Shown here: piece after piece, positions 21,915-47,091 of the stretch
Position numbering within the stretch: the stretch's first letter is position 1
How the letters are laid out: each line of letters starts with the position of its first letter
Virus record (IMG/VR): IMGVR_UViG_3300027733_000050
Coordinates: 1 to 64,000 of that record
Source: a virus
Strand: one strand, 5' to 3'
DNA length: 64,000 bases
Notes under the pieces: model-generated
The model's database searches: none
What the model saw: the letters and a program-made list of their open reading frames with translations, nothing else
Told to the model about the DNA's origin: nothing
Translations under genes and position numbers: made by a program

Positions 21915-22496
21915 ATGGCAGCAAACTATAAGATATTAGGTGCTATTGCACACAGGCTACAGGCACATATTGTAACGGCAGATACAGATGGCACATACAA
22001 TACTTACACCGTTGACAATACAGATGGACACTTTCTTGTTCCAGGACAGATCGTTACTATACCATCGGGATCTATTGATCCAGAGTTATCTGGAGACTAC
22101 ATTATATTGACTACTCCTGATATATTTACCTTTACAACATTCACAGGAACACTAACTACAATCACTCCGCCATATACATCAGTTGTATCTGATAATTTTA
22201 CTACCAACGAGGCTCCATTGTATACTGTTCCATCTGGAACATCTACGGTAGTTAGCTCTATAACGGTGTGCAATACTGGTACAGGGATAGAAACTTTTAA
22301 GATAAGAATACAAAAATCTTTTTCAACAAATCTGTTTGCAAACAAGGCAGACTATCTTTACTATAACTTACCTTTAAAGTCAGGCGATACATTTATTGCA
22401 ACAATAGGAACTACTTTATCTGCATCAGATATTGTGTATGTATCGTCAAGCAACAGGGCAGTTCAGTTTATGGCATTCGGATCAGAAATATATTAA
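21915..22496 (+). CDS. hypothetical structural protein (193 aa)
   Basis: ORF track; T/S-rich. Confidence 0.45.
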   Translation: MAANYKILGAIAHRLQAHIVTADTDGTYNTYTVDNTDGHFLVPGQIVTIPSGSIDPELSGDYIILTTPDIFTFTTFTGTLTTITPPYTSVVSDNFTTNEAPLYTVPSGTSTVVSSITVCNTGTGIETFKIRIQKSFSTNLFANKADYLYYNLPLKSGDTFIATIGTTLSASDIVYVSSSNRAVQFMAFGSEIY

Positions 22497-22497
22497 T

Positions 22498-23736
22498 ATG
22501 CAGGGATACGCACTAAAAGATACATCGGCAACTCAGGTTAGTATTTCAAACTCTACAAACTTAGATGCATTTGGGAGGCTTAGGGTTAGCAATCCATTTA
22601 CTTTATTTGATTCAAGCCACAGGTATGCTGATAATGGGCTGTGGTCTACATCTACTGCAACAGGAGGAACTACTACATTTAATGCAAATCAAGGTTTAGT
22701 AGACTTAGCTGTTACAGCGTCTTCAGGCTCTGAAGTTATAAGAGAAACTATTAAAGTATTTGCATATCAACCTGGTAAAAGTTTGCTTGTGTTAAGCACT
22801 TTTGTAATGAGCCCTGCTAAAATAAATCTTAGGCAAAGAGTTGGATATTATGGAACTCAGAATGGTTTATATGTTCAGCTAAATAACGCTACTCTTAGCT
22901 TTGTTGAAAGAAGTTTAGTTACTGGATCAGTAACTGAATCTGTAGTAGATCAATCATCATGGAATGTTGACAAAATGGATGGTACTGGCCCTTCAGGGAT
23001 AGTGTTAGATATTTCAAAGGCTCAAATATTATTTATGGATATTGAGTGGCTAGGTCTTGGGACAGTTAGAATGGGATTTGTTATAGATGGTAATTTTTAT
23101 GTTTGTCATAAGTTTCACCATGCTAACTTAATAACCTCTACCTATATTACAACTGCTTCGTTACCGCTTAGATATGAAATAAGAAATACAGGTGCTACAA
23201 GTGGAGTTAGTACATTAAAACAAATCTGCTCTAGTGTATTATCTGAGGGAGGTTATGAACTTCGTGGTTCACAACAAGCTGTAGGTACACCAATTACTAC
23301 GCCTAAAACTTTGACTACGGCAGGTACATTTTATCCTGTTGTCTCTATAAGACTTAAATCAACAAGGTTAGATGCTATAGCTGTAGCAACAGCTCTCTCT
23401 GCAATAGGAAATACAGCAGCTAATTTTAATTGGCAAGTTGTGTCAGGAGGTACTACTACAGGTGGTGCATGGGTAAGTGCAGGAGCAAACTCTAGTGTAG
23501 AGTATAATATAACAGGAACTTCTTTTGCAGGAGGTAGAGTTATTGCATCAGGATATTTTACAGCTACAGCAAGCACAAGTGTTTCTGTAGATATATTAAG
23601 GGCAGCTTTATTATCTACTCAATTAGAAAGAAATGGATTAACAGGAGTAGCTTCTGAATTTACATTAATTTTAGCGGCAGGTACAAATAATGAAACTGTA
23701 TTTGGTTCAATGGATTGGGAAGAAATAAGTAGATAA
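22498..23736 (+). CDS. hypothetical structural protein (412 aa from ATG at 22498)
   Basis: The ORF track gives 22432 as the start, but the ATG at 22498 (MQGYALKD) follows the upstream TAA by 1 nt; start chosen to avoid a 65-nt overlap. Confidence 0.5.
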   Translation: MQGYALKDTSATQVSISNSTNLDAFGRLRVSNPFTLFDSSHRYADNGLWSTSTATGGTTTFNANQGLVDLAVTASSGSEVIRETIKVFAYQPGKSLLVLSTFVMSPAKINLRQRVGYYGTQNGLYVQLNNATLSFVERSLVTGSVTESVVDQSSWNVDKMDGTGPSGIVLDISKAQILFMDIEWLGLGTVRMGFVIDGNFYVCHKFHHANLITSTYITTASLPLRYEIRNTGATSGVSTLKQICSSVLSEGGYELRGSQQAVGTPITTPKTLTTAGTFYPVVSIRLKSTRLDAIAVATALSAIGNTAANFNWQVVSGGTTTGGAWVSAGANSSVEYNITGTSFAGGRVIASGYFTATASTSVSVDILRAALLSTQLERNGLTGVASEFTLILAAGTNNETVFGSMDWEEISR

Positions 23737-27411: not shown

Positions 27412-30400
27412 ATGGCAGAAGAACAAGATATAACTCAAGTTGATCAAACTAGTTTAGATATACCTAGCTCCGATCTTGTGGCATCGTCTACAACAGAGGA
27501 GGAGAAGCCTAAACCTACTCCAAAGCCTGATCCTACATTTAGGAAGAAAATTTGGAATGGATTAGTAGCCCTTAATAGCAAAGGTAAAATTAAGTTAAGT
27601 TTAAAATCAGAACAAGAGTTTTATACTAAACTTGATGCTGATCAAGAATATGCTAGACAGTTATATTCTAATTTAAAAAAGGTTGTTCCTGCTGATAATC
27701 TTGATCAGGATGAGTCTGTGTTTCTTTCAAAAATATACGGCAAGCCAACTAAACCTGCTAACAGTGGGATGGCAGCTAATGAGCCAATGACTACTACTGA
27801 TAACAAAACTGCCAAAGTAGAGACCGTTTCAACTGATGCTTGGGAAGAGGCTTTATATACACCAGCTCAAGTAGCTATTGCAAGGAAGGAATTAGATGCT
27901 AACAACAAACAACCTACTCCGTACAAACTTCCTAGTGGCAAGACTGTAATTTTTAAATATAATTCTAAGGGTAACATTACTGCATCATACGCAACTCAGG
28001 GAGAGAAAGCAACTGATAAATTTTTTCAGTTGTCTAATGATGAGAAATTAAAGAAGGAATCTCAGTCAGCATTTTACAATTTTGATCAGATTTATGAAGA
28101 ACATCAAAAAGATCAAGATATTTTAAGAAAAGATCAAGAGGCATTAGATAGCAGAGGAAGTTCATTTGGAGGAATGGAATTGCAAGCTCCAAATAAATTA
28201 TCTAGCATAGATCGAATTAAATATAATAATAGACTTGAGTTATACGATTTAAAAATAAAACAAATTCATGATCAATTTGATGAGATTATAAAGTTTGGTG
28301 TTAATGAAAAGAATTATAAGCGTTTTATAACAATAGATAACAATGGATTTAGCGTTGTAAGCCAGTCAAAGATTGATAGTTTAGCCTCACAAATATTAAC
28401 ACATTATGGAGGAAATAATTCTTCTTATTTAAAAGAGATATTAGTAAAAAAACTGGAATCATATTTGAATGCTTTTCCAGGAATGTTAGAAGCATCAAAA
28501 AATACAGATAAAAAATTAAAATCAAAATTTGAGGCAGCAGCTGATGAAAAAGTTTCTTTGTTGAATAAGGCTCAAAACGAGAAATTATTAACAGAGGAGG
28601 AAATTAAAAATACATCAAAAGCATATTCTAATGAAGCTAAAGTAAAAGGTACTGAATTATCAAAACCTTATTTAGATCAAATCAAAACATTATCTGATCA
28701 ACAAAAATCATTAAACGATAATTTAGAAGCAGAGTCTAAAAAGTTTTTCTCTACTTTAACTGAAACAGATCCTGACATTAAGGCTTTATATGATAGTTAT
28801 TTAGCACAGGCTAAAGAGTTAGAAAATAGTCAATATAATAATCAAGAAAGAAATACATTAAATAAAAAATTTTATGATGACTTTGTTAAGAAAGCATCTC
28901 CTTTTTTTGAGGCTAAACAAAAGGAATTTAACGATAAATATAAAACAACTTTTGATCAAATAGGTCTTCAGATAAATGACTTAGCAAAAGAAATGAATGT
29001 TAAGTTAGCTGATTTATCAAGATCTTATAACGATAAATTTAGACTTTACCAGGATCAAAGGGTTGCACAGGGGAATAAAAAAATAGCTGATATACAAAAA
29101 CAGTTTCAAGCGATGGGTATATCAAAGGAGCTTTCTGATGAATATACAAGGGTATGGAAGGAAGAATTTGATAAATATCAATCTAAAAGAACAGCTCAAA
29201 TATATACTAAAAATGAGGTGGATAATTTTGGCCCTTTAGGATTATTTACAGAGTTTGGTAAAAGTGTATGGAATAATTTTGGCGGCACTTTAGAAAATGC
29301 TGGTACTGTTCTAGATTTTGATGCATTAAAGATATTAGGGGCTGAAATGAATAGAGGAGAGTACGGATTTAGTATTCCAGATATATCATTAAAAAGTTGG
29401 AAGGATATACTTAATCCATATAAAATTGCTGGATCTACAGGTCAGTTGGTTGGAAGAATGGTTCCACAAATTGGAGGTCAAATATTATTAGGATATGCAA
29501 CAGGTGGTGCTTCTTTATATGCTAGGGTTGCTCTTCAGACAGTTGCAGGTTATGCTTTTGAAACCATAGATATGGCTGGCGGTAAGTATAATGAAATATT
29601 AATGAAAACTGGTGATCCAGCGAAGGCTAGTAAAGCAGCTGAAGATTTAGCCTTTTTAAATTTAAGACTTTTGCCAACATATGGCTTAGAGGTGTTACCT
29701 TTTTTTGAAGAATTTAAAAATATTGTTAAAGGCAAAAGTTTACTTTCATATGCAGGAAGAGCAGGTATTGCTGGTGGAACAGAAATGTTAACAGAGACAT
29801 TTTTACAAGAACTTCCTCAGAATGCAATGGAGAGGAAAGTAGAGTTGGATGCTATGTACAATGCAAATGTAAGCCTTTCTGATATACTATTTACTAATGG
29901 TAAGACCTTGACTGATAAATCTGGTAAGGTATTAATTGATCAAGAATATCAAAGAACGATTAAGACAGATGCATCAGGTGATTTAAAGAATACATTTTTA
30001 AATGTAGGGCCATCATCATTTTTAATGGCGGCTCTTCCACATGCTGGAAGCTATGCTAAAACGACATATCAAGAGCTTTCTGGTAAAAGGATGTTTGCTA
30101 AATATAAATTAGGATTAGTAAACAGTAATCTTGCTAAACAAAAATTATTTGAGATTTTATTAACTAGAGGTGAAAATACAGCAGGGGCATTTTTAACTGC
30201 AATGCAAACATCTGGTATGGTATCAGAGGTAGAATTTAATGATATGTTATCATCGTTAGAGGAGATGCAAAGTCTAGCTGGTCTTTCTAAAAGAGAGAAA
30301 TTAAGCAAAGAAGACACCATGTTGTTAGGTGCTTTAATGTTTGAATATAAAACTCAAGAGAAGGCTTTAGCAAATCCAGAATTAACAGCTGATGAGAAAT

Positions 30401-32751
30401 CATTAATAGAGGAAAGATTAAAATATTCAAAGGATAACTTCAATAATTTTTTAAGAGGCAAAAAATCTGATTTTGTTATATTTAGAATAGGCAATACTGA
30501 TCACATAGTTAGCTACGATCAACTAGACAGATTAATGAATGATCAGGAATTTGTTAATAGCACAAAAGGTTCGTTCTCTATTTTTGTTGCTGGTAGTCAA
30601 GTAAATTCTAAGGGTGAAAACCTAAAAGAAAAGGCTATGAAAGTATTTGAGGTTCAGCCTTTAACTCAAGAACAGATTGATGACATGGAAAGGAATGGCA
30701 CTCCAGTGATGGATATATTTGCTAATACAGAGATTCCTAACCTAAATAGTTTAGTTCAAGATTTAGAAGAAAGAATGAATAATGCTGAGGAGATTGATGA
30801 GAAGGACATGAACTCTGCTATTGGAGGATTATACAAACAATTGCAAGATATACTTGACAACCATTACAACACTGAGAACGGAAAGAGAGCTGCTCAAATG
30901 TTGATGGATACAATTGAAAAACTTGAAAATTATGAATTTACAACAAAAGAAGAAACTGTCGATGTTAACGAGAGAACAACAACTCAAAGTATTAGAGAGG
31001 TTGTCAACGCAACAAAAAACATCTTTGGAAGGATCACAGGAACAGCTAAAAGCGGAGCCAAAAAATTCGCAAGAATCGTCACAGGATTCAAGCAGCAAGG
31101 AAAGTATTCAGTAGAAATCAACGAGAAGGATGAGGTTATTTTAACTCCTATGAGTGGAGCCCCTATCGTTCTTGGAAATAGAAAGGATTTAAATGGTAAG
31201 GTAAAGTTTGTTTCGTCTAGCTTTAGCGGAAAGACAGGCAAGATATCTACCATTACCTTCAGAGTAAACGAGGCTAACGAAAACGGTGTGATGCCAGAGG
31301 TTACCTTGTCTACAGCAGATGGATTTAGCTACGATGAATTGCTTGACATGGCTATCGATTTGAGGGCGATGGAGGTTGGTGAGGTTACTACAGAGGAGTT
31401 TGACAATGCAGTAACTGAGGTTGTTACAGGACAGAAGACTGTAAAGACTTTCCCTAATATTGGCAAGGCAGAGCAGAAGGCTAAAGCAAAAGCAGAGGCA
31501 GAAGCACAACAGCAAGCTGCTCCAGAGCAAGCACCGCAACAGACACCAGAGCAGATCAATCAAAGGGTACAGGTATTGCAGGCACAGCAGGAAGAGGAGT
31601 TAAAGGCTGCACAGGATATGATAAAGACATCAAACATCCGTAGCAGTGGAATGACCTTGAGCGAGGCTATAAAGGCAAGAGATGAGAAGGTAAAACAAAT
31701 CAGGGCTAAGTATAAAGTTCTTATTGATAACGCTAAGAAAGGCGTTACAGAGGAAACTCAGCAGGCTGAAGCAGAGCAGCAGCAGAATAAGGATGTTGTA
31801 GACATTACTTCAGACAACATTGAAGATTTGCAAAACATTCCTACTGAAAATAAATTTCAAAAGCGAGTGTTAAATGCGATACCTAACATATTAAAGGCGT
31901 TAGGTAAAATAGTTCCAGGAGTGAAGGTGTCTATTCACTTGACTACACAGTCTTACAGAGACAGTGTACTAAGAGATTCTAATGGAACAAATGATGGAAG
32001 AGGTACAAAGGGATATTATTATAGGGATAGCAAGACCATAAATATTGACTTATCAAAAATAAGCTCTATGGATGGTATGGTTACTACTTTCCACGAAGCG
32101 TTTCATGGTATGTATAAGGAGCTTCCTGATGGATTAAAAAATATTCTTTATGAATCTATCCAGACAATTGTTATGGGAAGTAGTTTTAGATTTAAAATAA
32201 AAACAAAATCTTATTTCAATAAGTTTGCTAAACAGTATACGAATAAAGATAAAAAGAAAGAGAAAGCAATACAGCAGGAAGAAGCAGTTGTTGAGTTCTT
32301 GGGCTATATGGCATCTGGTGGAGTTACATTAACTGTTCCAGGGTATAAGATGTTTATTGAGGCGTTGAACAAAATCCTAGATAAGATCGGTTTAGGTAGC
32401 TTTAAGTTCACCACATCTAATCAGGTAAAAGACTTTGCCAAGGGAGTTGTTAACGCAATGAAGACTGGACAGGATATTACTGAGTTAGTTCCACCATCAA
32501 CTCAAACGCAGCAAGGACAGCAGGATATCTCATTCAGAAATGAAACGGCTAAACTATTCGATCAGGTAAATAATTTAAAGGAAAAGGTTCAGGAAGCGGA
32601 AAATACAGCAGAAAAGCGTAAATTCGCAAGTGAAAGAAGAGAAATGTTGGCCGAGAATCCTTCCGTTAAGCTGATTGACGATAACTTCAAGAATATCATA
32701 GATCAGTTGAAGCAGAACGAAGAGTTTGAGTTTAAGGGCCCTTGCTTCTAA
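27412..32751 (+). CDS. giant virion protein (1779 aa), coiled-coil-rich, with a C-terminal zincin-like HExxH module
   Basis: Long K/E/Q-rich helical regions; ..INIDLSKISSMDGMVTTFHEAFHGM.. (HEAFH at nt 32092-32106), paralogous to the HExxH module of the 2914-aa protein; QQDISFRNE linker-type motif near the C-terminus. Confidence 0.55.
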   Translation: MAEEQDITQVDQTSLDIPSSDLVASSTTEEEKPKPTPKPDPTFRKKIWNGLVALNSKGKIKLSLKSEQEFYTKLDADQEYARQLYSNLKKVVPADNLDQDESVFLSKIYGKPTKPANSGMAANEPMTTTDNKTAKVETVSTDAWEEALYTPAQVAIARKELDANNKQPTPYKLPSGKTVIFKYNSKGNITASYATQGEKATDKFFQLSNDEKLKKESQSAFYNFDQIYEEHQKDQDILRKDQEALDSRGSSFGGMELQAPNKLSSIDRIKYNNRLELYDLKIKQIHDQFDEIIKFGVNEKNYKRFITIDNNGFSVVSQSKIDSLASQILTHYGGNNSSYLKEILVKKLESYLNAFPGMLEASKNTDKKLKSKFEAAADEKVSLLNKAQNEKLLTEEEIKNTSKAYSNEAKVKGTELSKPYLDQIKTLSDQQKSLNDNLEAESKKFFSTLTETDPDIKALYDSYLAQAKELENSQYNNQERNTLNKKFYDDFVKKASPFFEAKQKEFNDKYKTTFDQIGLQINDLAKEMNVKLADLSRSYNDKFRLYQDQRVAQGNKKIADIQKQFQAMGISKELSDEYTRVWKEEFDKYQSKRTAQIYTKNEVDNFGPLGLFTEFGKSVWNNFGGTLENAGTVLDFDALKILGAEMNRGEYGFSIPDISLKSWKDILNPYKIAGSTGQLVGRMVPQIGGQILLGYATGGASLYARVALQTVAGYAFETIDMAGGKYNEILMKTGDPAKASKAAEDLAFLNLRLLPTYGLEVLPFFEEFKNIVKGKSLLSYAGRAGIAGGTEMLTETFLQELPQNAMERKVELDAMYNANVSLSDILFTNGKTLTDKSGKVLIDQEYQRTIKTDASGDLKNTFLNVGPSSFLMAALPHAGSYAKTTYQELSGKRMFAKYKLGLVNSNLAKQKLFEILLTRGENTAGAFLTAMQTSGMVSEVEFNDMLSSLEEMQSLAGLSKREKLSKEDTMLLGALMFEYKTQEKALANPELTADEKSLIEERLKYSKDNFNNFLRGKKSDFVIFRIGNTDHIVSYDQLDRLMNDQEFVNSTKGSFSIFVAGSQVNSKGENLKEKAMKVFEVQPLTQEQIDDMERNGTPVMDIFANTEIPNLNSLVQDLEERMNNAEEIDEKDMNSAIGGLYKQLQDILDNHYNTENGKRAAQMLMDTIEKLENYEFTTKEETVDVNERTTTQSIREVVNATKNIFGRITGTAKSGAKKFARIVTGFKQQGKYSVEINEKDEVILTPMSGAPIVLGNRKDLNGKVKFVSSSFSGKTGKISTITFRVNEANENGVMPEVTLSTADGFSYDELLDMAIDLRAMEVGEVTTEEFDNAVTEVVTGQKTVKTFPNIGKAEQKAKAKAEAEAQQQAAPEQAPQQTPEQINQRVQVLQAQQEEELKAAQDMIKTSNIRSSGMTLSEAIKARDEKVKQIRAKYKVLIDNAKKGVTEETQQAEAEQQQNKDVVDITSDNIEDLQNIPTENKFQKRVLNAIPNILKALGKIVPGVKVSIHLTTQSYRDSVLRDSNGTNDGRGTKGYYYRDSKTINIDLSKISSMDGMVTTFHEAFHGMYKELPDGLKNILYESIQTIVMGSSFRFKIKTKSYFNKFAKQYTNKDKKKEKAIQQEEAVVEFLGYMASGGVTLTVPGYKMFIEALNKILDKIGLGSFKFTTSNQVKDFAKGVVNAMKTGQDITELVPPSTQTQQGQQDISFRNETAKLFDQVNNLKEKVQEAENTAEKRKFASERREMLAENPSVKLIDDNFKNIIDQLKQNEEFEFKGPCF

Positions 32752-32765
32752 AATAAATTACTACA

Positions 32766-33263
32766 ATGATTAAAACAGAAAAATTATCTAAAGATGTTGT
32801 GGCGATCCTAAATCATGGGATGCACAAGGAATTTGATCACATGTTAGCGTACAGAGGTGCTGCTAATTGGTGTAACAATAACGGTTTCTTTAAGGCTGCT
32901 GAGTATTTTGCTAAGGAGGCTGAAGAGGAATTTGGTCACGCTAAGAAGTATCAAGACTTCATGACTGACTGGAACGTAACACCAGATATCCCTAACCTTG
33001 ATCAACCAGTGATGGATTTTGAGAATCTTTGTGATGTTATCGAGACTATCTATGGCAACGAACTAGAGTTATTCCATACATACCAGGAGAACAGCACAGA
33101 GTTGTTTAATTCAGGCGAGATTGCGGTATTTGATTTCATGCAGTTTTACAGAAAGGCACAGAACGATTCTGTTAAGACATACAGCGATATGTTGAATATT
33201 TTAACTGGCACAAATTTAGATGATAAGTTCCAAATGTTAATGTTGGAAGAAAAACTATTTTAA
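32766..33263 (+). CDS. ferritin (FtnA-like non-heme ferritin)
   Basis: 165 aa; LNHGMHKEFDHMLAYRGAANWCNNNGFFKAAEYFAKEAEEEFGHAKKYQDFMTDWN aligns with bacterial ferritin [54 protein letters not shown]; ExxH ferroxidase motifs are retained; FDFMQFYRKAQ matches FNFLQWYVSEQ. Confidence 0.7.
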   Translation: MIKTEKLSKDVVAILNHGMHKEFDHMLAYRGAANWCNNNGFFKAAEYFAKEAEEEFGHAKKYQDFMTDWNVTPDIPNLDQPVMDFENLCDVIETIYGNELELFHTYQENSTELFNSGEIAVFDFMQFYRKAQNDSVKTYSDMLNILTGTNLDDKFQMLMLEEKLF

Positions 33264-33265: not shown

Positions 33266-36200
33266 ATGGCAAAACCTTGTATAGTAAAATATAAAGGAAA
33301 GGAATACAGTGTCGAGCAGTTCTCTGCTATGTTACACGATGGTTTGTTAAACAATCTTATTGAGTCAGGAGCAATCGACCAGAACAAGCTGAAAGGTGAT
33401 CTGAAGCTGTTGCAGGATAATGAGATTAGTTTTCAGTTAGAAAATATATTTTTAAATAGTCCTGACAAGCTATCTAGCTTAACAGAGGTTGCAAATTTTT
33501 TAAATGATTTTATAAAGGCAAACAAACTTTTTGAAGATAAAATAGAAAATGTTGCTGACGATATAGTTGTAAAGGAGTTTGCAAATCATATATCAAAGGA
33601 ATTAAAGGCATGGGACAAGGTGAAGGGATCTAAATATATTGGATTTTATGACGAAGATATTCCAGTTAGATTAAATCCAGAGCTACAAAAATTTGCAGAA
33701 AAAAGATACGGAAGAAAGTTACAAGATTTTGAGGTATCGTTGTATCATATTGTAAGTGCATTTGCATCTCCATCGGCCGATCCTAAGTTTGATTCTTCTA
33801 AGGGACTAGAGGTATTTGACAAGTATATGAAAACTGGTGTATTGACAGGATATACAGACAAGCAGGCAACTGAATGGGAAAAAAATGCAAAGGGGAAAAA
33901 AGTAGATACTGGAAGACTAAAATTTGATAAGAATGGAAATCCTGTTATGAAGCAGGTTGCAAAGGCATATGCCGTTGACTCTTTAGAAAAAGTTAAGACA
34001 GTTATCGATAAATTTAATGGAGATGTGGAGAAGGCTGTTAACTGGTTATTTTCTATACATAGCTATCAAGAACTTTCGGATATTATGAACCTTCCTACAA
34101 AAGGGGAAAAGGCATTATCTGAAAATGAATATTTATCTAAGTCAGATGGGGGGTACGGTGTATTTGCTGTAACTGGGGTAAAGCTAGGATCTTACATATT
34201 AAATAGAGTTGGCAATTACTCTACCGTTACAAAGGATATGTGGTACGCAAGAACCATGGCAAGGTTAGCAGGCGAGTCGTTATTAGAGGATGGTGAAGCT
34301 ATTAAAAGTCCATGGAGCTTAACAAAGGCTAATCTAAGAAAGAGAGTATTGGCTGATAAGGCTTTTGCTATAGTGGCCAAAAAATTAAAGACTACCCCAG
34401 CAATTATTCAGCAAAGAATATGGGACTTTGAAAAGAGACTGTATGAACAATTGGGGACAGTAGAAAAGGAAGGATATGCATCAGAAGGCTTTATTAAAAA
34501 AGCGAAGGAGATTCTTGGGGGAGATATTAGTTTCAGATTCGAGAAGTCTGGTACAGCTACCATAAAGAACGCTCCTAAGGGAACATACTTGAACATAGGA
34601 TTGCTGAAGGGCGAGACTGAAGAGTTGATATCTATTGACGAGGTTTTGTCTAACTTACCTTCAGATGTCAAGGTTGTAAAGCAGAGACAGGTTACAGGAA
34701 CGGAGCCTACTCTTGCGTTGCAGATCAGCAGAAAGATGAGCGATCAAGAAATGGAGGACTTCAGAAACGCTACTGCACAGATGGCTATCCCTCAGTTAAG
34801 CGATGGCAAGGGCGTTATACATGGCACGCAGGAGTGGGGAGAGTTCAACCCAGAGTTCTTTGTATTGCCTAACAATAAGCAGCTGTCAAGCATCGAAGGT
34901 GTTGAGATAACTAGCGTAGAGCCTAACGAAGAAGGGCCTAGTTTCCGTAGAGATGATATTGAGGCTACTGCTAAGGCGTTAGAGGGAGTTGGGTTAACTA
35001 ACATATGGCAGGCTGTAATAGGCAATAGAAAATATGGCAAGCCTGTAAGAGTTAAAGAGGATGGGAAAACATTTACTATTAAAAGAACAGATCCTGCTAC
35101 CAATGAGCCGTATGGATTTGAGCTTGGTGATGGATCGCCATATATTAGAACAGAGAGTGGTGAGTACACTAATGGTGACTCAACTTATGAATCATGGAAT
35201 CAATTCCTTCAAATTAACGAAGGTTCTGGAGTTTTAGATGGCATTTCAGATTTAAATGACACTACAGAGGCTGAGGTAAGGGCTAGAGAAAAAGATTTAA
35301 ATGTATCTTTTAATACTTTAAGCGACCTAGGATTCTGGAATAAGGCTAGCAATATTGTTGCTAATTTTTTAGGTTACGATTCTCCAATGCAAGCACAGGA
35401 GCAGAGCAAGGAAGATACTGAGATATGGAAGAATTTAGTTTCTAAGGCTGTAGATTTATTTAACTCTGGAAAGATTGAAAATATAGTTGATTTTTATAGT
35501 AAAGTATTTGGAATGTCTAAGGAGGAAGCCACTGACAGAAGTGGATACAAGACACCGTTTACTTATTTATCAGAGCAATATTATGATGCAAAGGATAACG
35601 GAAGTAATCCTAACTTAGTAAAGGCAGTTGAAGATCAAATTGGTGAGCAAGGTGGTATTTCATTCCGTTTGACAGAGCCATCAGGCGTTTCTTACAACGA
35701 AACATTAAAGATGGTGGGATTAACTCCATCATCATTAGAAGAATATGCAAAGACAATAAAGGTAACTCAACGACAAAAAAGAATTCCTGAGGCACAAAAG
35801 GCAGCAGAGGAATATAGAAAGGGTAACATAACTCAGGAACAGTATATAAAAACAGTAAGAGAGAAGCAGCCGATTACTCCTTTAAAATCTGTGCCAGTAA
35901 TACCATCCCTAAAAAGAGTTGTTACAAGTCTTGCTACCGACAAAGTAGAGAAAGGAATTATAGGATTAACAAAAGAGGTTCCTAACGGCACGCTGGTAGG
36001 TTTAAGATTAGATATTCCTGCTTACGATAGCTACGATACTTGGGTAGTGTCTGTACACGATGGTGCAAACAGAACTAGCAAAGGTGGATCTATTGGCTAT
36101 GGCCAGGCTGCTGTAATTAAAAATGTAACATTTGGTGCAGAGCCTAAGGCTACATTAGCAATTGCTGTAGATAAAGCAAAGGCTCCTATCGCTCGTATGT

Positions 36201-39200
36201 TTGGGGAGTGGGTAAACGAGGATCCACAGTCTGTAAAAGAAAGAGCAGAGAAGTTAATGAACGATCCTGCTTGGACACAGGTAGGAATGAATCCTTTTAG
36301 ACACAGCTGGTTTTATGACAAGGCTAACGGCAATCCTGTAATATCTGCTGACGAGGTTATTCAAGTAGGTGCTTTGGTATTGGCAAAGAATGTTGTGATG
36401 GGATCGATTACTGACAAGCGTTTTGCTACTAAAAATGACAAGGGAGAACAGATATTCTTCCGTAAAGAAGACAAGGTAAAGGGAAGCTACTTCGAGCCTG
36501 CGATGACAACTGACTCTAAGGGCAACTATGTATTCTTCCACTTCTCTACGGCTCCGTTGAAGTCATTGATGAAGGGTATCGACTCAAGAAAATACTACAG
36601 CACCAGAACATCGAGAGATGAGAAGGGATTGCAGTACGGTGTAGCATCTTACTATACAAAGCCTACAGACAGCGAGAATGTTGTTGGTGGGGATAAGTAT
36701 TATGTAACGATATCTCCTGACAAGGTATACCCAATGGATCTTGATCCTAACGGATACAGAGCTGCGGCAGAGAAGAAGATTAAGAAGAACACACCGTTCA
36801 GAGAGTCTAAGATCAGCAAGGAGATTGCTAATGCAGCTGCACGAGATGGCTACGAGATGGCCGTTGGAGAGTGGAGCTTTGACAGATCTGGATTAACCAA
36901 GAGCGAGATCCCTGAGTTCAGAGGTGATGCATTGGTTCCGTTGAAGCCTACAGAGATTACAGGCAAAGAAAAGTTCAAGACAGGAGAAGAAAGAGGTATC
37001 AAGACCGAGCATCCAGACAGAGCTAGATTGGCATTCAATCAGCAGGTAGAGGATCTTGCATCTGATATTGACTCTTATAAGTCTAGCAAGGGTAAGTTCG
37101 ATGATGCCTATGAGATCGCATCTACTGTTATGGTATACGGCGGTATCGTAGAGGATTACGGAACACCTAACCAGAGAGTAAGACCTCTTACAATGAAAGA
37201 GTTCGACACCATGACCAAGGGATTATCTCCTAAGCTAAAGCAAAGAGCTGAGAAGATAAGAGGTCAGATGGAGGATAATCAAGGTATGTCCTTCAGAATA
37301 GATGAAAAAGAAATAGAAAAACCTACAAAAAATGCTGATGGATCATTAAGATATAATTTTAATTTAATACAAAATGGGAAAAAGGTTGGTAATGTTGTTT
37401 ATGATATTTTAAAAAATAAATTAATAATCCAATCAATTAATTCTTTTAAAAATGGAATCGGTAAATTATATATTGAACAATTAAAAAATAAATATCCAGA
37501 CAAAAAAATAACTGGTTATTCAACTGTATCAGCAAGAGGGTTTTGGGAAAAAATGGGGGCCATTTTTAATGAAAGCGATAAACAAGAAAATTATGATGAT
37601 GACAGTGGCGATTTGACTGGATTTGAACTTCCAAACGAAATCTCCTTCAGAATAGACGAAAACTATAAGAACAATATTGAAAAGCAGTTAGGAAAGTTTG
37701 ACGAGCAAAATAAAAATAAAAAATTTCCATCTGCATTAGAGGTTGCTAAGTACGTATTACCGAAAGATATATTTGATCGATACAGAAATCTTTATGAGAT
37801 GGCTGCTAGAAATAATATTCAAGTTACTATTGACTTAGAGAGGTTGCCGTATAACGCAGTTGCAACTTACTCATATGGATTTATAAATCTTAGTAAATTA
37901 AAATCCTCTTATAATATAAATAACTACGAAGAGTTTGCTGAGGTTTTTAATCATGAAATTATTCATGGATTGTTAAGTAAAGGAATTGATGGATTTACAA
38001 AGAAATTTGATTTTCATAACAATTTACAAAACATAATGCAAGCTGTAATAGATAACTCTGATTCTGCAAGTGAAAATGTTAAAGCAATAATATCTTATAT
38101 TGTAGAGGCTGGTGAGGAATTTAAGGTAAAAGATTATTATAATGCAACAAAGGAAGAATCAGAATCGGGTAATTATAGAACTGTTAATGATTTAGAAGAG
38201 TTAATTACATATGCATTTACGAATACTGAATTTGCAGAGTTCTTAGATTCTATACCAGCATCAAAAGATATTGATGTAAAAGGTAAATCTATTTTTCAAC
38301 AGTTAAAAAATATTATTAGAGACTATATAAAAAAATTAGTTAAGGGGCCTACAGCACTTGATGAAATTAATTCTGTTTTAGATAAATTTTTGGATACAGC
38401 TTGGAATGAGCAAGACATCGCTGAAAGAAATAGCCAGTATAATTGGGGACTAAAGTTTAATGCTGACGAAATCTCCTTCAGAGCAGACATGGGCCAGAGA
38501 AGGATCACCAGCAACCCAAGATTAATGGCGATGCTGTATGGTGCTAACTTCAAGGACTTGAGAAGAGCTATCAATATATCTCCAGACTCATTCTATACTC
38601 CACAAAAATATTCACAGCTGAAGCCACAGATAGCAAACATGTCGGATGCAGAGTTGCTAGCAGCTATCGATGTAGATACAGCATTAGAGGATATATTCCG
38701 TAGCACAGATGGGCCAATCGTTGGTCTTGCTTTTATAGAGTACATCAACAGACTAAAGAATCTGATAGCAAACACTACAGATCAAAATGATATTGATCTT
38801 TACGAAGAGTTAATTCAAAATGCTTACGATTCTGTTGCTCCATTTACAACGAAGGTTGCTCAGATTTTAAGACAACTTGGAGAGATCAAGTCAACGATTA
38901 AGAAAGATGAGGTTCAGTTTTATCTTGACATGATCGAGTCATTGATTAATGCAAATGGTTATATGATTAATGAGGATCATAGGGATGCATTAAGAGGAAT
39001 CATAGAGGTTGTATTAAACAGCAAGAAGAACTATACAACATTGTTCCAGGATTTAGTAAACAAAGGTAGTGGTGTTACGGCACAGGACATACAAGATCTA
39101 AACATGGCAGAGGTTGAACTACAGAACGCTAACGCTGCATTGAACATGATCGTGGCATTCTTATCGCCTCCATCATCAAAAGATTTCTGGTCTGGAGTGT

Positions 39201-42010
39201 TAAGAGGGAACCTAATGTCTGTACGAAGTGCATTGACTGGATTATACTCTAACTTAATAAACATGGGAGTGTTTAAATACAGAAATCTTGTACAGTCTGT
39301 ATTGAGTATTCCATTTGCTATACTTAAAAAAGCTGGCATAAATACTTTTGGACTAGAAAAATATCAGTTTTTTAATACTCCAATTGTATCAAACATTAAG
39401 TACGGATTATTCCTAGATGTATTACAGGATGCTATTGTTGGTGTTACAAAGGCTATTGCTACATTAGGAAAGATAATGATCGGAAAGGAATCGTTTAGAG
39501 GGTTCCTAGATAAATCACCTACAGCCAACAGAGTATTTAATATTATAAAGTATGGTTCTTCAGCACTTGAGGGAGGATCTCCTGTGATATTAGATAAGAG
39601 TAACCACACGATGACAGCTATCAGAAAAGCAATGACATCTAAAGGTGGTAAGACTACACTGAATATTAGAGGAATGAAGATGGATGTAGCTAGCTCATTT
39701 AAGAGAACTAGTTTCAGCAAATGGTTTAAAGTTAACTATCCAGGAAGTGATTACAATTCATTATCTGCAAAGGATAAAAAGATTATTCAAGACGAATTTT
39801 TCAACGATCCTAAGGCTGCTGTACCAACAATAGGTGATAAGGCTGCTGTGTTAGGAAGAGCATTTATGGCCGTTAACTCTGAGTTTGTATTTAGATTAGT
39901 AGCCTTATCGGATTACCTTCCCAAGACTTATGCAAACAATATAGAGATGACTAGACTTGCTCAGACTCTTGGACTAGATGAGAATCAAACTCAGCTATTC
40001 ATGAGGGATCCTGCAAAGTACATAGAGATCATGTCAAATGTATTAACTCCAGAGGCTTTAAACTTTTGGATTGATACAGTAGCAGAGGTTACAGTTACAA
40101 AGGATACAGGATTAGGAAAGGCATCTACAGCTTTCGTAGAGGGCATAAAAAATTATGTTCCTATGAAATTAATGAGAGCATTCCCAGGATTAAGTGATAA
40201 CAAGGCGTTTATAAATGCTGTAGGTGTTTGGCAATTTATTATTGACTCTATTGTTCCGTTTGTTAAGATACCTATGAATGCTATCAGTTTAACAGCGGAC
40301 TTCTTAATTCCTAGTAAGCCGTTTATGAAGGCAATCTATTTTAGTGCATTAGCAATTAAAAATAAAGGAACAGATCAAGCTGAAGCATACGCATTGTCTG
40401 CAATGAAAAACTACTCTATGACCGTTGTAGCATTAGGTTTAAGATCATTAGCAGTTGGTTTGGTGTCAGTTCCAGGACTAGTTGTATTAGCACCAGGGAA
40501 GGATGATGACGATGAGAAGAAGAAAATGAAATCTAAGTTCTCAAGAATGTCAATCAATATCGATGCATTAAAGAGATACTTTACACCAGGAGAAGATCCT
40601 TCATATAAGGATGGTGATCAATACCACTCATTAACAGCATATGGTGTATTAGGGATTTTAATTTATAACTATGCATCAATCAATGACCAAGCTAACAAAA
40701 AATATTACGATGAAATAAGCAAGGCTCCTAAAAACTTATTGCCAAGCGAGGGTATTACATCAAATCCTTTTGATATGTCTACAAGTGGATTTTTAGAGCT
40801 AGAATTAAAGGCATTTGAGGCTAGTCAGTTCTTTATCGATCAGTCATGGTTCGTTGGTATTAATTCAGCGTTGCAGGGATTAACTGGTGGTGAAAAAGGA
40901 GCAGATCAGTTTGTAAATAATTACATAGGAACATTATTGTCTACGTGGTGGGGATTCTCTTCACATGCTCAACAAATATCTGATATGTACAGAGAGATAA
41001 CTGGTAAGCCAGTATTTGATGTAACGCTCCCAACAGAATTGCAGAATGTGAAAAAAGAAGGGTATCCAGGAGTATTTAGTGACCGTATATGGAACAACAT
41101 ATTTAAGAAGAATGAACTTATTCATGATGCTATTATGAAATCTCCAGAGGATAGTGAATACATTAAGTTTAGTATGTATGGTGAGAAAATGAGTCCAGTA
41201 GCAGGAAATACTAAAAATAAATTAGATGTTGCTTTGTCTATCGCAGCTCCAGCTAGAAGGGTTACTCCAAACTTAACCAAGGAAGAAAGATTTTACATGG
41301 CTGTATATGAAAACAAAAATAAGATTAATATTCCAGGGTATGAATTAAGTTTAGCTGAACCAACTATGAATAAAACAGAGAAGTTAAAAGTGTTTTATAA
41401 GGTGGCTGAGTTTGGTCAGGTAGCTGAGACAATAAATGTAATGATCATGCCAAAGGAATACAACAAGATTAACGAAATGGCAGGTGATGCCCTAAGGGAT
41501 TTACACTCTACTTTATTAAGCGAACAAGGTTTATTAGACTTTGAGGTAAGAGGAAAAGTTATAAGCCCAGAAGATATTATGTCCAAAAACTGGGGCAATA
41601 CTAAAGAGGTTGCAAATGTAAGAAATGCAATTGCTGTATCTATTTCAGAGGGGAATAAATTATTAAACACTTTCCTAAAACCATGGGAACTGTTTAGTAA
41701 ACCTGTAACTAATTATATTGGTAAGGAGGAGGCTGCTGTTATTCAAGAGGTAAGATCACTAATTGATACTAGACTATTAACTTACAAGGTTTTAAATCCA
41801 AATACAGGTAAAATGGAAATGCTTTCAAGTTATTTAGTGACTAACCCTGAGTTATCTAATAAATTATACAACCTAGCAAAAGAATCAATCCTATTGTATT
41901 TAAAGGCAGCTAGTGAAGCTATAAATAAAAACGATAAGTATAGAGAGCTATTAGACAACCCAGAAATAACAATAGAGCAAGAAAAAGCTAGAAAAGAAGG
42001 TAATTTTTAA
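33266..42010 (+). CDS. giant modular virion protein (2914 aa) with a recurrent ISFR linker motif, a GNAT-like module and a zincin-like HExxH module
   Basis: SFR tripeptide in a conserved context ((D/E/G)(I/M/P)SFRx(D/E)E) occurs seven times (nt about 34523, 34934, 35651, 37283, 37634, 38465, 39485) plus an ISFQ variant at 33418; GNAT-like KNGIGKLYIEQL...SARGFWEKMGAIF (nt about 37300-37620); FNHEIIHGL at nt 37952-37966. Confidence 0.6.
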   Translation: MAKPCIVKYKGKEYSVEQFSAMLHDGLLNNLIESGAIDQNKLKGDLKLLQDNEISFQLENIFLNSPDKLSSLTEVANFLNDFIKANKLFEDKIENVADDIVVKEFANHISKELKAWDKVKGSKYIGFYDEDIPVRLNPELQKFAEKRYGRKLQDFEVSLYHIVSAFASPSADPKFDSSKGLEVFDKYMKTGVLTGYTDKQATEWEKNAKGKKVDTGRLKFDKNGNPVMKQVAKAYAVDSLEKVKTVIDKFNGDVEKAVNWLFSIHSYQELSDIMNLPTKGEKALSENEYLSKSDGGYGVFAVTGVKLGSYILNRVGNYSTVTKDMWYARTMARLAGESLLEDGEAIKSPWSLTKANLRKRVLADKAFAIVAKKLKTTPAIIQQRIWDFEKRLYEQLGTVEKEGYASEGFIKKAKEILGGDISFRFEKSGTATIKNAPKGTYLNIGLLKGETEELISIDEVLSNLPSDVKVVKQRQVTGTEPTLALQISRKMSDQEMEDFRNATAQMAIPQLSDGKGVIHGTQEWGEFNPEFFVLPNNKQLSSIEGVEITSVEPNEEGPSFRRDDIEATAKALEGVGLTNIWQAVIGNRKYGKPVRVKEDGKTFTIKRTDPATNEPYGFELGDGSPYIRTESGEYTNGDSTYESWNQFLQINEGSGVLDGISDLNDTTEAEVRAREKDLNVSFNTLSDLGFWNKASNIVANFLGYDSPMQAQEQSKEDTEIWKNLVSKAVDLFNSGKIENIVDFYSKVFGMSKEEATDRSGYKTPFTYLSEQYYDAKDNGSNPNLVKAVEDQIGEQGGISFRLTEPSGVSYNETLKMVGLTPSSLEEYAKTIKVTQRQKRIPEAQKAAEEYRKGNITQEQYIKTVREKQPITPLKSVPVIPSLKRVVTSLATDKVEKGIIGLTKEVPNGTLVGLRLDIPAYDSYDTWVVSVHDGANRTSKGGSIGYGQAAVIKNVTFGAEPKATLAIAVDKAKAPIARMFGEWVNEDPQSVKERAEKLMNDPAWTQVGMNPFRHSWFYDKANGNPVISADEVIQVGALVLAKNVVMGSITDKRFATKNDKGEQIFFRKEDKVKGSYFEPAMTTDSKGNYVFFHFSTAPLKSLMKGIDSRKYYSTRTSRDEKGLQYGVASYYTKPTDSENVVGGDKYYVTISPDKVYPMDLDPNGYRAAAEKKIKKNTPFRESKISKEIANAAARDGYEMAVGEWSFDRSGLTKSEIPEFRGDALVPLKPTEITGKEKFKTGEERGIKTEHPDRARLAFNQQVEDLASDIDSYKSSKGKFDDAYEIASTVMVYGGIVEDYGTPNQRVRPLTMKEFDTMTKGLSPKLKQRAEKIRGQMEDNQGMSFRIDEKEIEKPTKNADGSLRYNFNLIQNGKKVGNVVYDILKNKLIIQSINSFKNGIGKLYIEQLKNKYPDKKITGYSTVSARGFWEKMGAIFNESDKQENYDDDSGDLTGFELPNEISFRIDENYKNNIEKQLGKFDEQNKNKKFPSALEVAKYVLPKDIFDRYRNLYEMAARNNIQVTIDLERLPYNAVATYSYGFINLSKLKSSYNINNYEEFAEVFNHEIIHGLLSKGIDGFTKKFDFHNNLQNIMQAVIDNSDSASENVKAIISYIVEAGEEFKVKDYYNATKEESESGNYRTVNDLEELITYAFTNTEFAEFLDSIPASKDIDVKGKSIFQQLKNIIRDYIKKLVKGPTALDEINSVLDKFLDTAWNEQDIAERNSQYNWGLKFNADEISFRADMGQRRITSNPRLMAMLYGANFKDLRRAINISPDSFYTPQKYSQLKPQIANMSDAELLAAIDVDTALEDIFRSTDGPIVGLAFIEYINRLKNLIANTTDQNDIDLYEELIQNAYDSVAPFTTKVAQILRQLGEIKSTIKKDEVQFYLDMIESLINANGYMINEDHRDALRGIIEVVLNSKKNYTTLFQDLVNKGSGVTAQDIQDLNMAEVELQNANAALNMIVAFLSPPSSKDFWSGVLRGNLMSVRSALTGLYSNLINMGVFKYRNLVQSVLSIPFAILKKAGINTFGLEKYQFFNTPIVSNIKYGLFLDVLQDAIVGVTKAIATLGKIMIGKESFRGFLDKSPTANRVFNIIKYGSSALEGGSPVILDKSNHTMTAIRKAMTSKGGKTTLNIRGMKMDVASSFKRTSFSKWFKVNYPGSDYNSLSAKDKKIIQDEFFNDPKAAVPTIGDKAAVLGRAFMAVNSEFVFRLVALSDYLPKTYANNIEMTRLAQTLGLDENQTQLFMRDPAKYIEIMSNVLTPEALNFWIDTVAEVTVTKDTGLGKASTAFVEGIKNYVPMKLMRAFPGLSDNKAFINAVGVWQFIIDSIVPFVKIPMNAISLTADFLIPSKPFMKAIYFSALAIKNKGTDQAEAYALSAMKNYSMTVVALGLRSLAVGLVSVPGLVVLAPGKDDDDEKKKMKSKFSRMSINIDALKRYFTPGEDPSYKDGDQYHSLTAYGVLGILIYNYASINDQANKKYYDEISKAPKNLLPSEGITSNPFDMSTSGFLELELKAFEASQFFIDQSWFVGINSALQGLTGGEKGADQFVNNYIGTLLSTWWGFSSHAQQISDMYREITGKPVFDVTLPTELQNVKKEGYPGVFSDRIWNNIFKKNELIHDAIMKSPEDSEYIKFSMYGEKMSPVAGNTKNKLDVALSIAAPARRVTPNLTKEERFYMAVYENKNKINIPGYELSLAEPTMNKTEKLKVFYKVAEFGQVAETINVMIMPKEYNKINEMAGDALRDLHSTLLSEQGLLDFEVRGKVISPEDIMSKNWGNTKEVANVRNAIAVSISEGNKLLNTFLKPWELFSKPVTNYIGKEEAAVIQEVRSLIDTRLLTYKVLNPNTGKMEMLSSYLVTNPELSNKLYNLAKESILLYLKAASEAINKNDKYRELLDNPEITIEQEKARKEGNF

Positions 42011-46159: not shown

Positions 46160-46354
46160 TTAATTATTTAAGTGTTTTACTAATTGAATCATTATAAATA
46201 TTATGGACAGGATAAAGAACGCATCTCTGTATGCAGCCATTCTAGCGGAGTTAATTACTCTATTATTAAATAATGATAATAGAAAGTCTGATATAGACAG
46301 TATAGTTAACATGCACGAGAATAATACTATGCACAGGTAAGCTAATTCTTTCAT
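46160..46354 (-). CDS. small membrane protein (64 aa)
   Basis: ORF track; two hydrophobic helices. Confidence 0.35.
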   Translation of the reverse strand: MKELAYLCIVLFSCMLTILSISDFLLSLFNNRVINSARMAAYRDAFFILSIIFIMIQLVKHLNN

Positions 46355-47091
46355 TCCTCGTTAGGTATTTCAACAAAGTCAACATCAAGTAAGTCTTCTG
46401 TATGAACAGGATCTGGTGCTGTCTGTTGATCCATTGTAGACATTGCTGAAGCTAATCTAGAAATGTTCATTGCATCATTCTTAGGAAGGTACTTAAACAA
46501 TCTTCTGATGACTGTCTTTCTTGCCATCTCCGTAAAGTCTGTTCCCCATGCACCATTTAACTTCTGCGATTTCTTGTTCATATCTGAACGCATCGCAATG
46601 TTATACACCTCTTGTGCGGTCATGTACTCTACATACTTAGCATCGTTTGATCCAGTAGCAATAGCATACACACCAATGATATCACCAGGATTTCCATTGA
46701 TGACTGGCTTGTGGGTGATGCTTGTTGATGTTCCGTAGTTAATCTCAAATACATCATTGGCATACACAACCCTTGCCTCAACATTCTTTAAGATACCCGA
46801 ACTAACTAACAAGTAAATCAAGCCTTGGTAACCAGGTTGAAATACACACTTACCTTTTCTTGGAACAAGGTATCCATGTCCCATCACAGGATTAAGTGTT
46901 AGTCCACTCATTGCAATGTTTAATACAGAGCTTGCTACCGACTTAGGATCGCATGCTTGTAAGAATGTATTGTTTGATAAAGCCTGCAATGCGTACATTG
47001 CTTCCTTCTCAAATGCCATATCAGGGGCTATTTGTTTGAATCGCTCCTCCTGTGTAGCGATAGCCTGCTGGGCCAATTTAATGTTGCTCAT
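46351..47091 (-). CDS. recT: RecT-family single-strand annealing protein
   Basis: 246 aa; GHGYLVPRKGKCVFQPGYQGL core typical of RecT/Red-beta-like proteins; overlaps the upstream recombinase gene stop. Confidence 0.6.
   Translation of the reverse strand: MSNIKLAQQAIATQEERFKQIAPDMAFEKEAMYALQALSNNTFLQACDPKSVASSVLNIAMSGLTLNPVMGHGYLVPRKGKCVFQPGYQGLIYLLVSSGILKNVEARVVYANDVFEINYGTSTSITHKPVINGNPGDIIGVYAIATGSNDAKYVEYMTAQEVYNIAMRSDMNKKSQKLNGAWGTDFTEMARKTVIRRLFKYLPKNDAMNISRLASAMSTMDQQTAPDPVHTEDLLDVDFVEIPNEE

Follow-up and report, generated by a model that had tools for sequence, protein, structure and literature searches.

A ferritin-family gene held between giant cargo-position genes in crassvirus-type phages

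The ferritin-like genes found in phages have until now been regarded as occasional genes with a stress or auxiliary function. Those known from Lactobacillus phages and the ‘Gratiaviridae’ belong to the ferritin superfamily and are presumed to limit iron and oxidative damage; they are Dps-type proteins (12-mers without an E helix and with an intersubunit site) or Mn-catalases, whose genes are placed outside head modules and read as stress-tolerance functions (PMC8008677). Here we describe a gene of this superfamily in a different setting: the open reading frame (ORF) at positions 32,766 to 33,263 of a 64,000-nucleotide stretch of viral DNA (IMG/VR virus record IMGVR_UViG_3300027733_000050, positions 1 to 64,000; the whole stretch is referred to below as the window). 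It had been singled out in a prediction made from the sequence alone (the original prediction), and its product is very probably a genuine ferritin with an intact ferroxidase centre. The gene is fixed in what appears to be a head-interior module, and its relatives recur beside portal genes.

Two described systems bear on this arrangement. In the crassvirus PhiCrAss001, gp45, gp46 and gp47, encoded after the muzzle gene, were found in virions by mass spectrometry, and these proteins, along with gp49 and gp50, are believed to exit through the tail in a partly unfolded state (PMC10172136). The ferritin gene occupies the slot of these cargo genes, 3' of the ring and muzzle genes and among giant ORFs, but no crassvirus cargo protein is a ferritin, and whereas those of PhiCrAss001 have been seen in virions, the window ferritin is known from genes alone. 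Encapsulin systems offer a likeness of idea, a ferritin-superfamily enzyme encoded beside the HK97-fold shell that encloses it (EncFtn, IMEF and Myxococcus xanthus EncB/C; PMC6668986, PMC8346489). EncFtn proteins are two-helix half-ferritins that form decamers, and IMEF and EncB/C are distinct four-helix proteins; these cargoes carry terminal targeting peptides and store iron in a shell-dependent manner, unlike the window protein, which resembles a complete cage-type ferritin and has no recognisable peptide of this kind.

Family assignment and ferroxidase centre

The gene and the codons discussed in this section are as follows (residue numbers in the window ferritin equal those of Escherichia coli FtnA, EcFtnA, plus 5, as read off the Helicobacter pylori alignment):

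32,766-33,263 (+): ferritin ORF, ATG start, 165 amino acids (aa), isoelectric point 4.6
32,829, 32,850, 32,928, 32,937, 33,060 and 33,159 (+): codons of the ferroxidase-centre residues E22, Y29, E55, H58, E99 and Q132, respectively, placed by alignment
32,916 (+): codon of E51, an invariant residue specific to the subfamily, placed by alignment of relatives

The product matches the Pfam family Ferritin (PF00210) with 57 bits (E = 2.7e-15; gathering cut-off 24.5 bits), residues 13-144 aligning with profile positions 2-137 of 142. In a phmmer search of all PDB chains the best match was H. pylori ferritin (3bve, 1.3e-14), with EcFtnA (1eum) at 4.1e-13; these alignments span residues 6-146, and animal ferritins match far more weakly than bacterial ones. 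Among the PHROGs the protein falls in phrog_16594 (E = 8.5e-13), a family without assigned function. An AlphaFold2 monomer model, built with six homologues as input (predicted local distance difference test score 90.7, predicted template modelling score 0.85), contains helices A (9-38), B (42-68), C (88-115), D (119-146) and a short E (154-164), with a long loop between B and C. Its top Foldseek matches in the PDB are exclusively 24-mer ferritins, and it superimposes on EcFtnA and the Vibrio cholerae ferritin (3QZ3) with template modelling (TM) scores of 0.89-0.91 and root-mean-square deviations of 1.3-1.6 Å, at 22-25% sequence identity. The predicted fold is that of a classical five-helix maxi-ferritin subunit, and the modelled E helix and B-C loop are compatible with a 24-mer cage, though no proof of one.

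All six residues of the EcFtnA centre have their equivalents in the window protein (Glu17 = E22, Tyr24 = Y29, Glu50 = E55, His53 = H58, Glu94 = E99, Gln127 = Q132). In an alignment of 53 members the invariant columns are E22, Y29, E51, E55, H58, E99, L102, Y106 and Q132, and the seven polar ones, that is, the six centre residues and Glu51, are present in 34 of 34 unique sequences from genomic loci. The ligands are unchanged even among sequences as little as 22-25% identical, an invariance that only catalytic constraint explains. A di-iron ferroxidase centre of the H-chain type is apparently intact, and the protein catalytically competent.

These results bear out the original prediction that the gene encodes a ferritin whose ferroxidase residues are conserved on proper alignment, and they redraw some of its detail. 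Its description as FtnA-like holds to the extent that the best matches are bacterial non-haem ferritins; an FtnA orthologue, on the other hand, is ruled out by the score against the NCBIfam FtnA model NF007638 (53.1 bits, against an equivalog cut-off of 178) and by the loss of site C described below. Two ExxH motifs had been proposed, of which EEEFGH does hold the canonical E55-x-x-H58, whereas in ELELFH only E99 is a ligand: H104 varies among relatives (H/E/E/E) and is not at a ferritin ligand position. Other members of the superfamily were considered and rejected. Bacterioferritins (Bfr) are marked by a haem-binding Met52 and a second ExxH (Glu127-x-x-His130) in helix D; the window protein has Phe56 at the Met52 position and Gln132 and Ser135 at those of Glu127 and His130, and no Bfr is among its top PDB matches. 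A Dps protein (12-mer, no E helix, intersubunit site) is excluded by the top structures, all of them 24-mer ferritins, and by the complete intrasubunit centre; viral Dps models in BFVD match the ferritin model poorly (TM 0.6-0.7, E above 1e-3).

What distinguishes the protein is its iron-transit residues. Bacterial ferritins typically have a third site, C (Glu49, Glu126, Glu129 and Glu130), in which Glu130 bridges sites B and C, and removal of Glu130 made mineralisation about tenfold faster in a diatom ferritin (PMC4771812). The window protein has E54, A131, D134 and S135 at these four positions, so site C is not kept; among relatives, position 126 is never Glu (Ala, Ile or Val), 129 is variable, and 130 is Ser (25 sequences) or Ala (9). 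Conversely, Glu51 is invariant where the E. coli and H. pylori ferritins have His (His46), which suggests a new transit or third-site ligand in place of site C. The phage ferritin thus shares with its bacterial counterparts (EcFtnA, 1EUM; H. pylori Pfr, 3BVE; V. cholerae ferritin, 3QZ3) a length of ~165 aa, five helices, the long B-C loop and the site A and B ligands, and differs from them in sequence (22-26% identity), in the loss of site C, in the His46 to Glu replacement, and in occurring on phage contigs only. It also recalls animal H-chain ferritins, which have the same ligand set, a small residue at the Glu130 position and no site C; in the human H chain the centre comprises E27, Y34, E61, E62, H65, E107 and Q141, and A144 takes the place of Glu130. 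No closer sequence kinship links the phage ferritin to the animal proteins, and the resemblance is one of convergent site C loss; by analogy, it predicts that Fe(III) would be released fast into the cavity.

The cargo-gene slot and its giant neighbours

The structural genes of the window that define the position of the ferritin gene, together with the features of the two giant genes flanking it, are:

5,395-7,209 (+): large terminase, at the start of the plus-strand structural block
7,228-9,597 (+): portal, in the same block
15,581-16,243 (+): crassvirus tail ring protein 2 (PF25702, 43 bits)
16,243-16,959 (+): crassvirus tail ring protein 1 (PF24228, 38.7 bits)
16,961-21,676 (+): crassvirus muzzle protein, 1571 aa (PF25731, 160 bits, E = 1.1e-46)
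27,412-32,751 (+): giant 1, 1779 aa, in cargo-gene position, with a single HExxH at aa 1561
32,527-32,748 (+): C-terminal domain of giant 1, ~74 aa (aa 1706-1779), running from an ISFR motif to ‘...EFEFKGPCF’
33,266-42,010 (+): giant 2, 2914 aa, with one HExxH (aa 1563) and hydrophobic segments within aa 2315-2410
33,266-33,436 (+): giant 2, N-terminal domain as far as an ISFQ motif (aa 1-57, ‘MAKPCIVKYKGKEYSVEQFSAMLHDGLL...’)

The order is terminase, portal, ring protein 2, ring protein 1, muzzle, five genes (193-549 aa), giant 1, ferritin, giant 2; the stop codon of giant 1 is followed after 14 nucleotides (nt) by the ferritin gene, and this after 2 nt by the start of giant 2. PhiCrAss001 shows the same layout of ring, muzzle and giant genes. 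Judged by its gene content, the window belongs to a crassvirus-type phage with a ferritin in the cargo-gene slot; the original prediction had already placed the gene within a phage structural operon. That this placement is unusual was also borne out: a tblastn search of 50,697 phage records, with the ferritin and two distant members of its subfamily as queries, found no true relative, the only matches being weak cellular-type ferritins in unannotated records.

The position is not peculiar to one contig. The ferritin occupies the same slot, tightly coupled between cargo-position giants, in ~50 related contigs, and relatives only 45-55% identical keep it on unrelated metagenomic contigs with a muzzle gene nearby (L001-3, L053). 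At 23 IMG/VR loci found through the ferritin, the flanking proteins measure 750-3300 aa, and the IMG/VR contigs that carry it cluster at 64-71 kilobases (kb), which suggests the size of these phage genomes. When IMG/VR was searched with the N-terminal domain of giant 2 alone, 16 loci were recovered, nine of them on new contigs, and every one (16/16) had a ferritin-like ORF immediately 5' of the giant (hmmsearch E = 1e-36 to 1e-71). At six loci (L020, L021, L025-27 and L031) the block of giants plus ferritin is found across the muzzle-like gene from its usual position, from which it follows that the ferritin travels with the giants. Intergenic gaps around the ferritin gene range from -14 to +37 nt. 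Promoter- and terminator-like sites around it occur at chance level and no terminator flanks it, in a scan that did not include Bacteroidota-type promoters. Its G+C content at third codon positions (GC3) is 0.42, against 0.34 +/- 0.08 for the window genes (within ~1 standard deviation) and 0.27 and 0.31 for the flanking giants. The absence of signals of its own, the 16/16 presence, the lack of a close cellular homologue and the ordinary GC3 speak against a moron or sporadic auxiliary gene; the ferritin is a fixed core element of the whole phage clade. Two further genes were noted near such blocks: one for a putative metal-chelating CxxCxxCC protein (PF03692) between the muzzle and cargo genes of L053 (2978-3313), and one encoding an Acb2/Tad1-hairpin (anti-CBASS sponge-like) protein just past the ferritin block of L007 (12181-12441).

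BLAST comparison of the neighbours shows that only two pieces of the giants are conserved, namely those adjoining the ferritin, the rest having diverged past detection. The piece that always directly precedes the ferritin comprises the last 60-90 residues of the upstream giant and ends in ‘...LE..G...KKG[ND]CP’; the other comprises the first 30-60 residues of the downstream giant (‘MA(x)PC..YKGK.Y...EF..MLHDG.L’). The N-terminal domain of giant 2, predicted to form a beta-hairpin and two helices, has invariant M1, A2 and C5. In the window the paired terminal cysteines appear as ‘...KGPCF’ in giant 1 and ‘MAKPC’ in giant 2 (32,740-32,748 and 33,266-33,280). In PhiCrAss001, gp49 starts with ‘MAKKC’, gp50 with ‘MSKRC’, and gp47 ends in ‘...LRCNS’, which bears a loose likeness to the end of giant 1; the shared ‘MAKxC’ start and the Cys near the C-terminus look like a general, previously undescribed feature of crassvirus giant cargo proteins.

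A second element bounds exactly the two terminal pieces that are conserved together with the ferritin. This is the motif [I/M/P]-S-F-[R/Q], following Gly/Asp/Glu/Asn/Gln-rich residues, of which giant 2 has seven copies and giant 1 one; the rest of the window has none (expectation 0.17; no more than 2 in 2000 shuffles). The giants of relatives do not carry the motif in identical form; it may stand for sites of processing or for docking peptides. Its positions are:

giant 1 (+), ISFR: aa 1706 (nt 32,527)
giant 2 (+), [I/M/P]SF[R/Q]: aa 54, 421, 558, 798, 1341, 1459 and 1736 (nt 33,425, 34,526, 34,937, 35,657, 37,286, 37,640 and 38,471, respectively)

As to what the giants are, no PDB, Pfam or useful PHROG match was obtained, and BLAST and phmmer comparison with PhiCrAss001 gp45-50 gave nothing beyond the muzzle. 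The one internal region with recognisable relatives is aa 794-1216 of giant 2 (35,645-36,913), which shares 42% identity with a segment of Roseobacter phage CRP-9 gp54 (1395 aa; its gene comes right after that of the portal) and 26% with a segment of a 3694-aa ‘structural protein; DUF3293’ of Flavobacterium phage elemoE, and which may be a module common to internal or ejected giants across podovirus groups. From position and partial homology we infer, reasonably, that the giants are virion proteins, and it is in this sense that their earlier description as giant virion-protein genes should be read. A virion RNA polymerase was considered, but the giants lack a DxDxD polymerase motif and a PDB match, and such an identity could not be shown; nor are the two paralogues of each other, as there is no BLASTP similarity between them. 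A split intein, or a single ORF interrupted by the ferritin, was likewise rejected, since the flanking domains are helical or beta-hairpin plus helices rather than HINT-like and the ferritin ORF is bounded by start and stop codons of its own.

Relatives, other phage lineages and further genes of the window

A profile search of 1.84 billion representatives returned 2211 proteins with E<1e-3, 486 with E<1e-10 and 40 with E<1e-30. Some 95 top representatives share a signature (EcFtnA numbering) in which E17, Y24, E50, H53, E94 and Q127 are kept, position 126 is hydrophobic and position 130 is Ser or Ala; canonical ferritins, with Glu at 49, 126, 129 and 130, start only near E = 1e-21 in the same list, and a rough neighbour-joining tree (without support values) places the phage sequences apart from cell-type ferritins. 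Two pattern-based scans of 185,579 species genomes, one genome for each species, yielded two matches, both on contigs of metagenome-assembled genomes; on the longer (L118, from a Bacteroidetes bin) a 2357-aa giant is followed by the ferritin, as in the phages. Apparently, then, the ferritin belongs to a distinct, virus-only subfamily. In BFVD, a few ferritins of uncultured phages that were annotated automatically in UniProt can be found (for example, ‘Putative bacterial non-heme ferritin [uncultured marine phage]’), including one fragment with 37% identity, and in the literature we found no description of a structural-module or crassvirus ferritin.

Members of 181-273 aa (P0017-P0031, P0165, P0166; L051, L052, L109-L116) carry acidic or Lys-rich low-complexity N-terminal extensions and, where context is available, lie outside head modules with wider intergenic gaps. 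In P0096 and P0141 the ferritin domain is fused to other N-terminal domains, one of which carries a ‘PYPNFHAARVRDP’ motif; these N-terminal parts have no Pfam or PHROG match and thus give no Rosetta-stone clue. One ‘metagenomic’ representative, P0146, was discarded as a synthetic influenza haemagglutinin-H. pylori ferritin nanoparticle vaccine construct (Hemagglutinin 308 bits, Ferritin 125 bits). Several multi-domain proteins of uncultured Caudovirales in BFVD (A0A6J7WIS1, A0A6J7XDU5 and A0A6J7WPK9) bear the name ‘Prohead protease’ and include a Dps/ferritin-like domain matching the model (probability 1.00, E ~1e-2); if real, protease-fused domains of this kind would be independent evidence for delivery of ferritin-like domains into capsids.

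A metagenome-wide scan without viral pre-filter and a further IMG/VR scan yielded 63 further loci, some of them redundant with one another or with the earlier ones; the collection scans are pattern-limited and the locus counts include near-duplicates. By context they fall into the following classes:

29 of 63 loci: giant-flanked, with paired terminal-Cys motifs, arranged as in the window
8 loci: ferritin after a ~3300-aa giant and followed by a small protein or an M15 peptidase
14 loci: ferritin directly after a Mu-type portal, stop and start codons overlapping
2 loci: lambda-family portal (PF05136), ferritin immediately 3' of it, two further genes, then the major head protein
10 loci: small-gene contexts with larger gaps, mostly N-terminally extended variants

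MuF and SPP1 gp7-type proteins are capsid-internal and portal-associated, and in the larger Mu-portal subgroup the order is portal, ferritin, Phage_Mu_F minor head protein (PF04233, 55 bits). The lambda-type ferritin has 64% identity to a crAss-type one and nests in the crAss clade (again in a tree without support values), which implies that the gene has moved between phage lineages. By our estimate there were roughly five independent placements, each of which landed beside portal or internal-protein genes. In the class with a 3300-aa giant, M15 peptidase homologues directly 3' of the ferritin (L069, L075, L081) put it at a boundary between structural and lysis genes; across the loci the recurrent genes 3' of the ferritin are M15 peptidase, MuF or unknowns, none of them iron-related.

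Several other genes of the window deserve mention:

938-1,252 (+): 104-aa protein, lipoprotein-type signal (MNKLFLLTAVILLTSC), one CMGCH (CxxCH) motif
3,089-3,679: weak nucleotide-kinase-like ORF, beside the next gene
3,709-4,248 (+): SPFH/Band 7 protein (PF01145, 79 bits, E = 4.6e-22), upstream of the terminase
22,432-23,736 (+): 434-aa protein in phrog_1645, ‘virion structural protein’ (9e-140)
46,351-47,091 (-): RecT recombinase (126 bits)
47,907-48,374 (-): Peptidase_M15_3 endolysin-like protein (39 bits)

The product of 22,432-23,736 aligns over more than 90% of its length, at 62-66% identity, with proteins of the marine T4-like cyanophages S-RIM12, S-RIM50 and S-WAM2 and of Puniceispirillum phage HMO-2011, and seems, from these identities, to be a highly conserved module shared horizontally among very different aquatic phages; the window portal and the ferritin have no match in any deposited phage. 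This shared protein and the names of contigs (TARA, lake-like JGI sets) are the sole pointers to a habitat in lakes and oceans, and the host is hinted at only by similarity to Flavobacterium phage proteins and by the one Bacteroidetes-binned contig. Two associations drawn in the original prediction fared less well than its account of the gene itself. The iron/redox theme, in which the ferritin was paired with a cytochrome c at 938-1,252, finds no backing: that ORF has no Pfam match at E<=0.01 and no cytochrome c family support, lies ~32 kb away in another gene block, and is at most a possible haem-binding lipoprotein. The link to encapsulin cargo reduces to analogy, since EncFtn proteins are half-ferritins with targeting peptides and the window ferritin is not; an encapsulin operon is itself excluded by the terminase, portal, ring and muzzle genes, which mark a tailed phage.

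Packaged cargo or cytoplasmic cage

The reading we prefer, with a probability of roughly 0.47, is that the ferritin is produced alongside the cargo proteins and works in or at the head as it fills, most plausibly packaged with them in the cargo zone of the capsid. Its subunits would be translated, like these proteins, from the late structural transcript, and would presumably assemble into a 24-mer cage and oxidise Fe(II) by O2 or H2O2; without Glu130 and site C, Fe(III) would pass fast to the mineral core, a flux proposed because such a loss speeds it in other ferritins (PMC4771812). Working at or inside the assembling head, and likeliest packaged, the cage would keep redox-active iron off the packed DNA and cargo proteins, making the virion an iron-bearing particle. 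That the ferritin is physically linked to the head interior is close to an even bet; the wider proposal, that crAss-like phages (~65-70 kb, aquatic) and the unrelated Mu- and lambda-portal phages alike package an assembled cage in the capsid cargo zone, is doubtful. The fixed place of the gene across the clade and its recurrence beside portal and MuF genes strengthen the idea of a packaged protein without proving it.

A number of observations weigh against packaging. The support for it is gene position and co-inheritance, and a shared position may mean no more than shared timing of transcription. A ferritin is absent from PhiCrAss001 and from all cultured crassviruses, and is thus not needed for cargo packaging generally; all relatives of the window ferritin are metagenomic, and the giants show no detectable homology to gp45-50 except for the short N-terminal motif. 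The crassvirus tail channel is under 5 nm wide (PMC10172136), too narrow for a 12-nm, ~460-kDa cage, so that ejection would need unfolding and reassembly, while a cage that stayed in the head would have no precedent. About 10 of the 63 loci hold N-extended variants in small-gene contexts outside recognisable head modules, and the ferritin sequence has no recognisable capsid-targeting peptide.

The width of the cage, the missing peptide, the ferritin-less PhiCrAss001 and the N-extended variants speak at the same time for a late-expressed cytoplasmic auxiliary cage that is never part of the virion and whose place in the operon sets timing and dosage only. Such a cage would mop up Fe(II) from degraded host proteins or DNA, limit Fenton damage to phage DNA, or hoard scarce iron, which is the known job of cellular ferritins and Dps, and it would stand beside the Dps or Mn-catalase genes of other phages (‘Gratiaviridae’, PMC8008677), the ferritin of myxophage MV-2, read as an auxiliary gene, and the uncultured-phage ferritins already in UniProt. 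Catalysis at the di-iron site of ferritin, moreover, requires assembly (PMC4646333), which is awkward if the protein is packaged or ejected. We regard a purely cytoplasmic role as nearly as probable as packaging, and place it second on account of where the gene is found. All of the roughly five placements adjoin a portal, MuF or giant cargo gene, none lying anywhere else in a late block of 25-35 kb, and as this block has 20-30 possible junctions, late timing alone hardly explains them; the gene also has no promoter or terminator signature of its own, overlaps the stop and start codons of its neighbours, shows no patchy presence within the clade, and has no close host homologue in the species genomes scanned.

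Two other explanations appear much less probable than either of these. The ferritin might serve the giants as iron donor or chaperone, providing or buffering iron for a metal centre made up of their terminal cysteines (‘...GNCP’, ‘MAxPC...’) that would link cargo head to tail for ordered ejection; in its favour, conservation of the giants together with the ferritin is confined to the two Cys-bearing ends next to its gene, and Bayfield et al. propose that the order of ejection depends on cargo-protein interactions. This is nevertheless improbable, in that the same termini are present in ferritin-less PhiCrAss001 (gp47, gp49, gp50), so that the motif is independent of the ferritin, the Mu-portal and lambda-portal classes lack these cysteines, a single Cys in each terminus makes a weak metal site, and no ferritin is known as a direct metallochaperone of this kind. 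More improbable still is a ferritin fold put to a use that needs no iron chemistry (for instance as scaffold, spacer or decoy), or a host gene present through recent capture or contamination. Four-helix bundles lend themselves to new functions, the score is far under the FtnA equivalog cut-off, and the GC3 of the gene is somewhat above that of the flanking giants; against this, every ferroxidase ligand is invariant down to 22-25% identity and GC3 is within ~1 standard deviation of the window genes, and the synteny conserved across dozens of contigs and the absence of any cellular copy already refute recent capture.

The window thus appears to hold a member of the ferritin family with altered iron-transit residues, fixed in a head-interior gene module, of which we found no earlier description, and it suggests that abundant aquatic crAss-like phages handle or even carry iron. 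If packaged, the protein would be the first case of a ferritin as cargo in the capsid of a true virus, and would provide a functional tie between phage heads and the iron compartments of encapsulins, as a natural counterpart and possibly an evolutionary antecedent. If only late-expressed, it would show iron and oxidant control during head filling to be under strong selection in abundant environmental phages. Either way, the gene is a clean marker and its product a small, easily expressed protein. With packaging, the idea of phages as iron carriers would gain a concrete, testable molecule: mineralised iron would be carried by phage heads, and not by tail fibres alone, which would bear on how stable virions are and on how much of the colloidal iron of lakes and oceans is viral.

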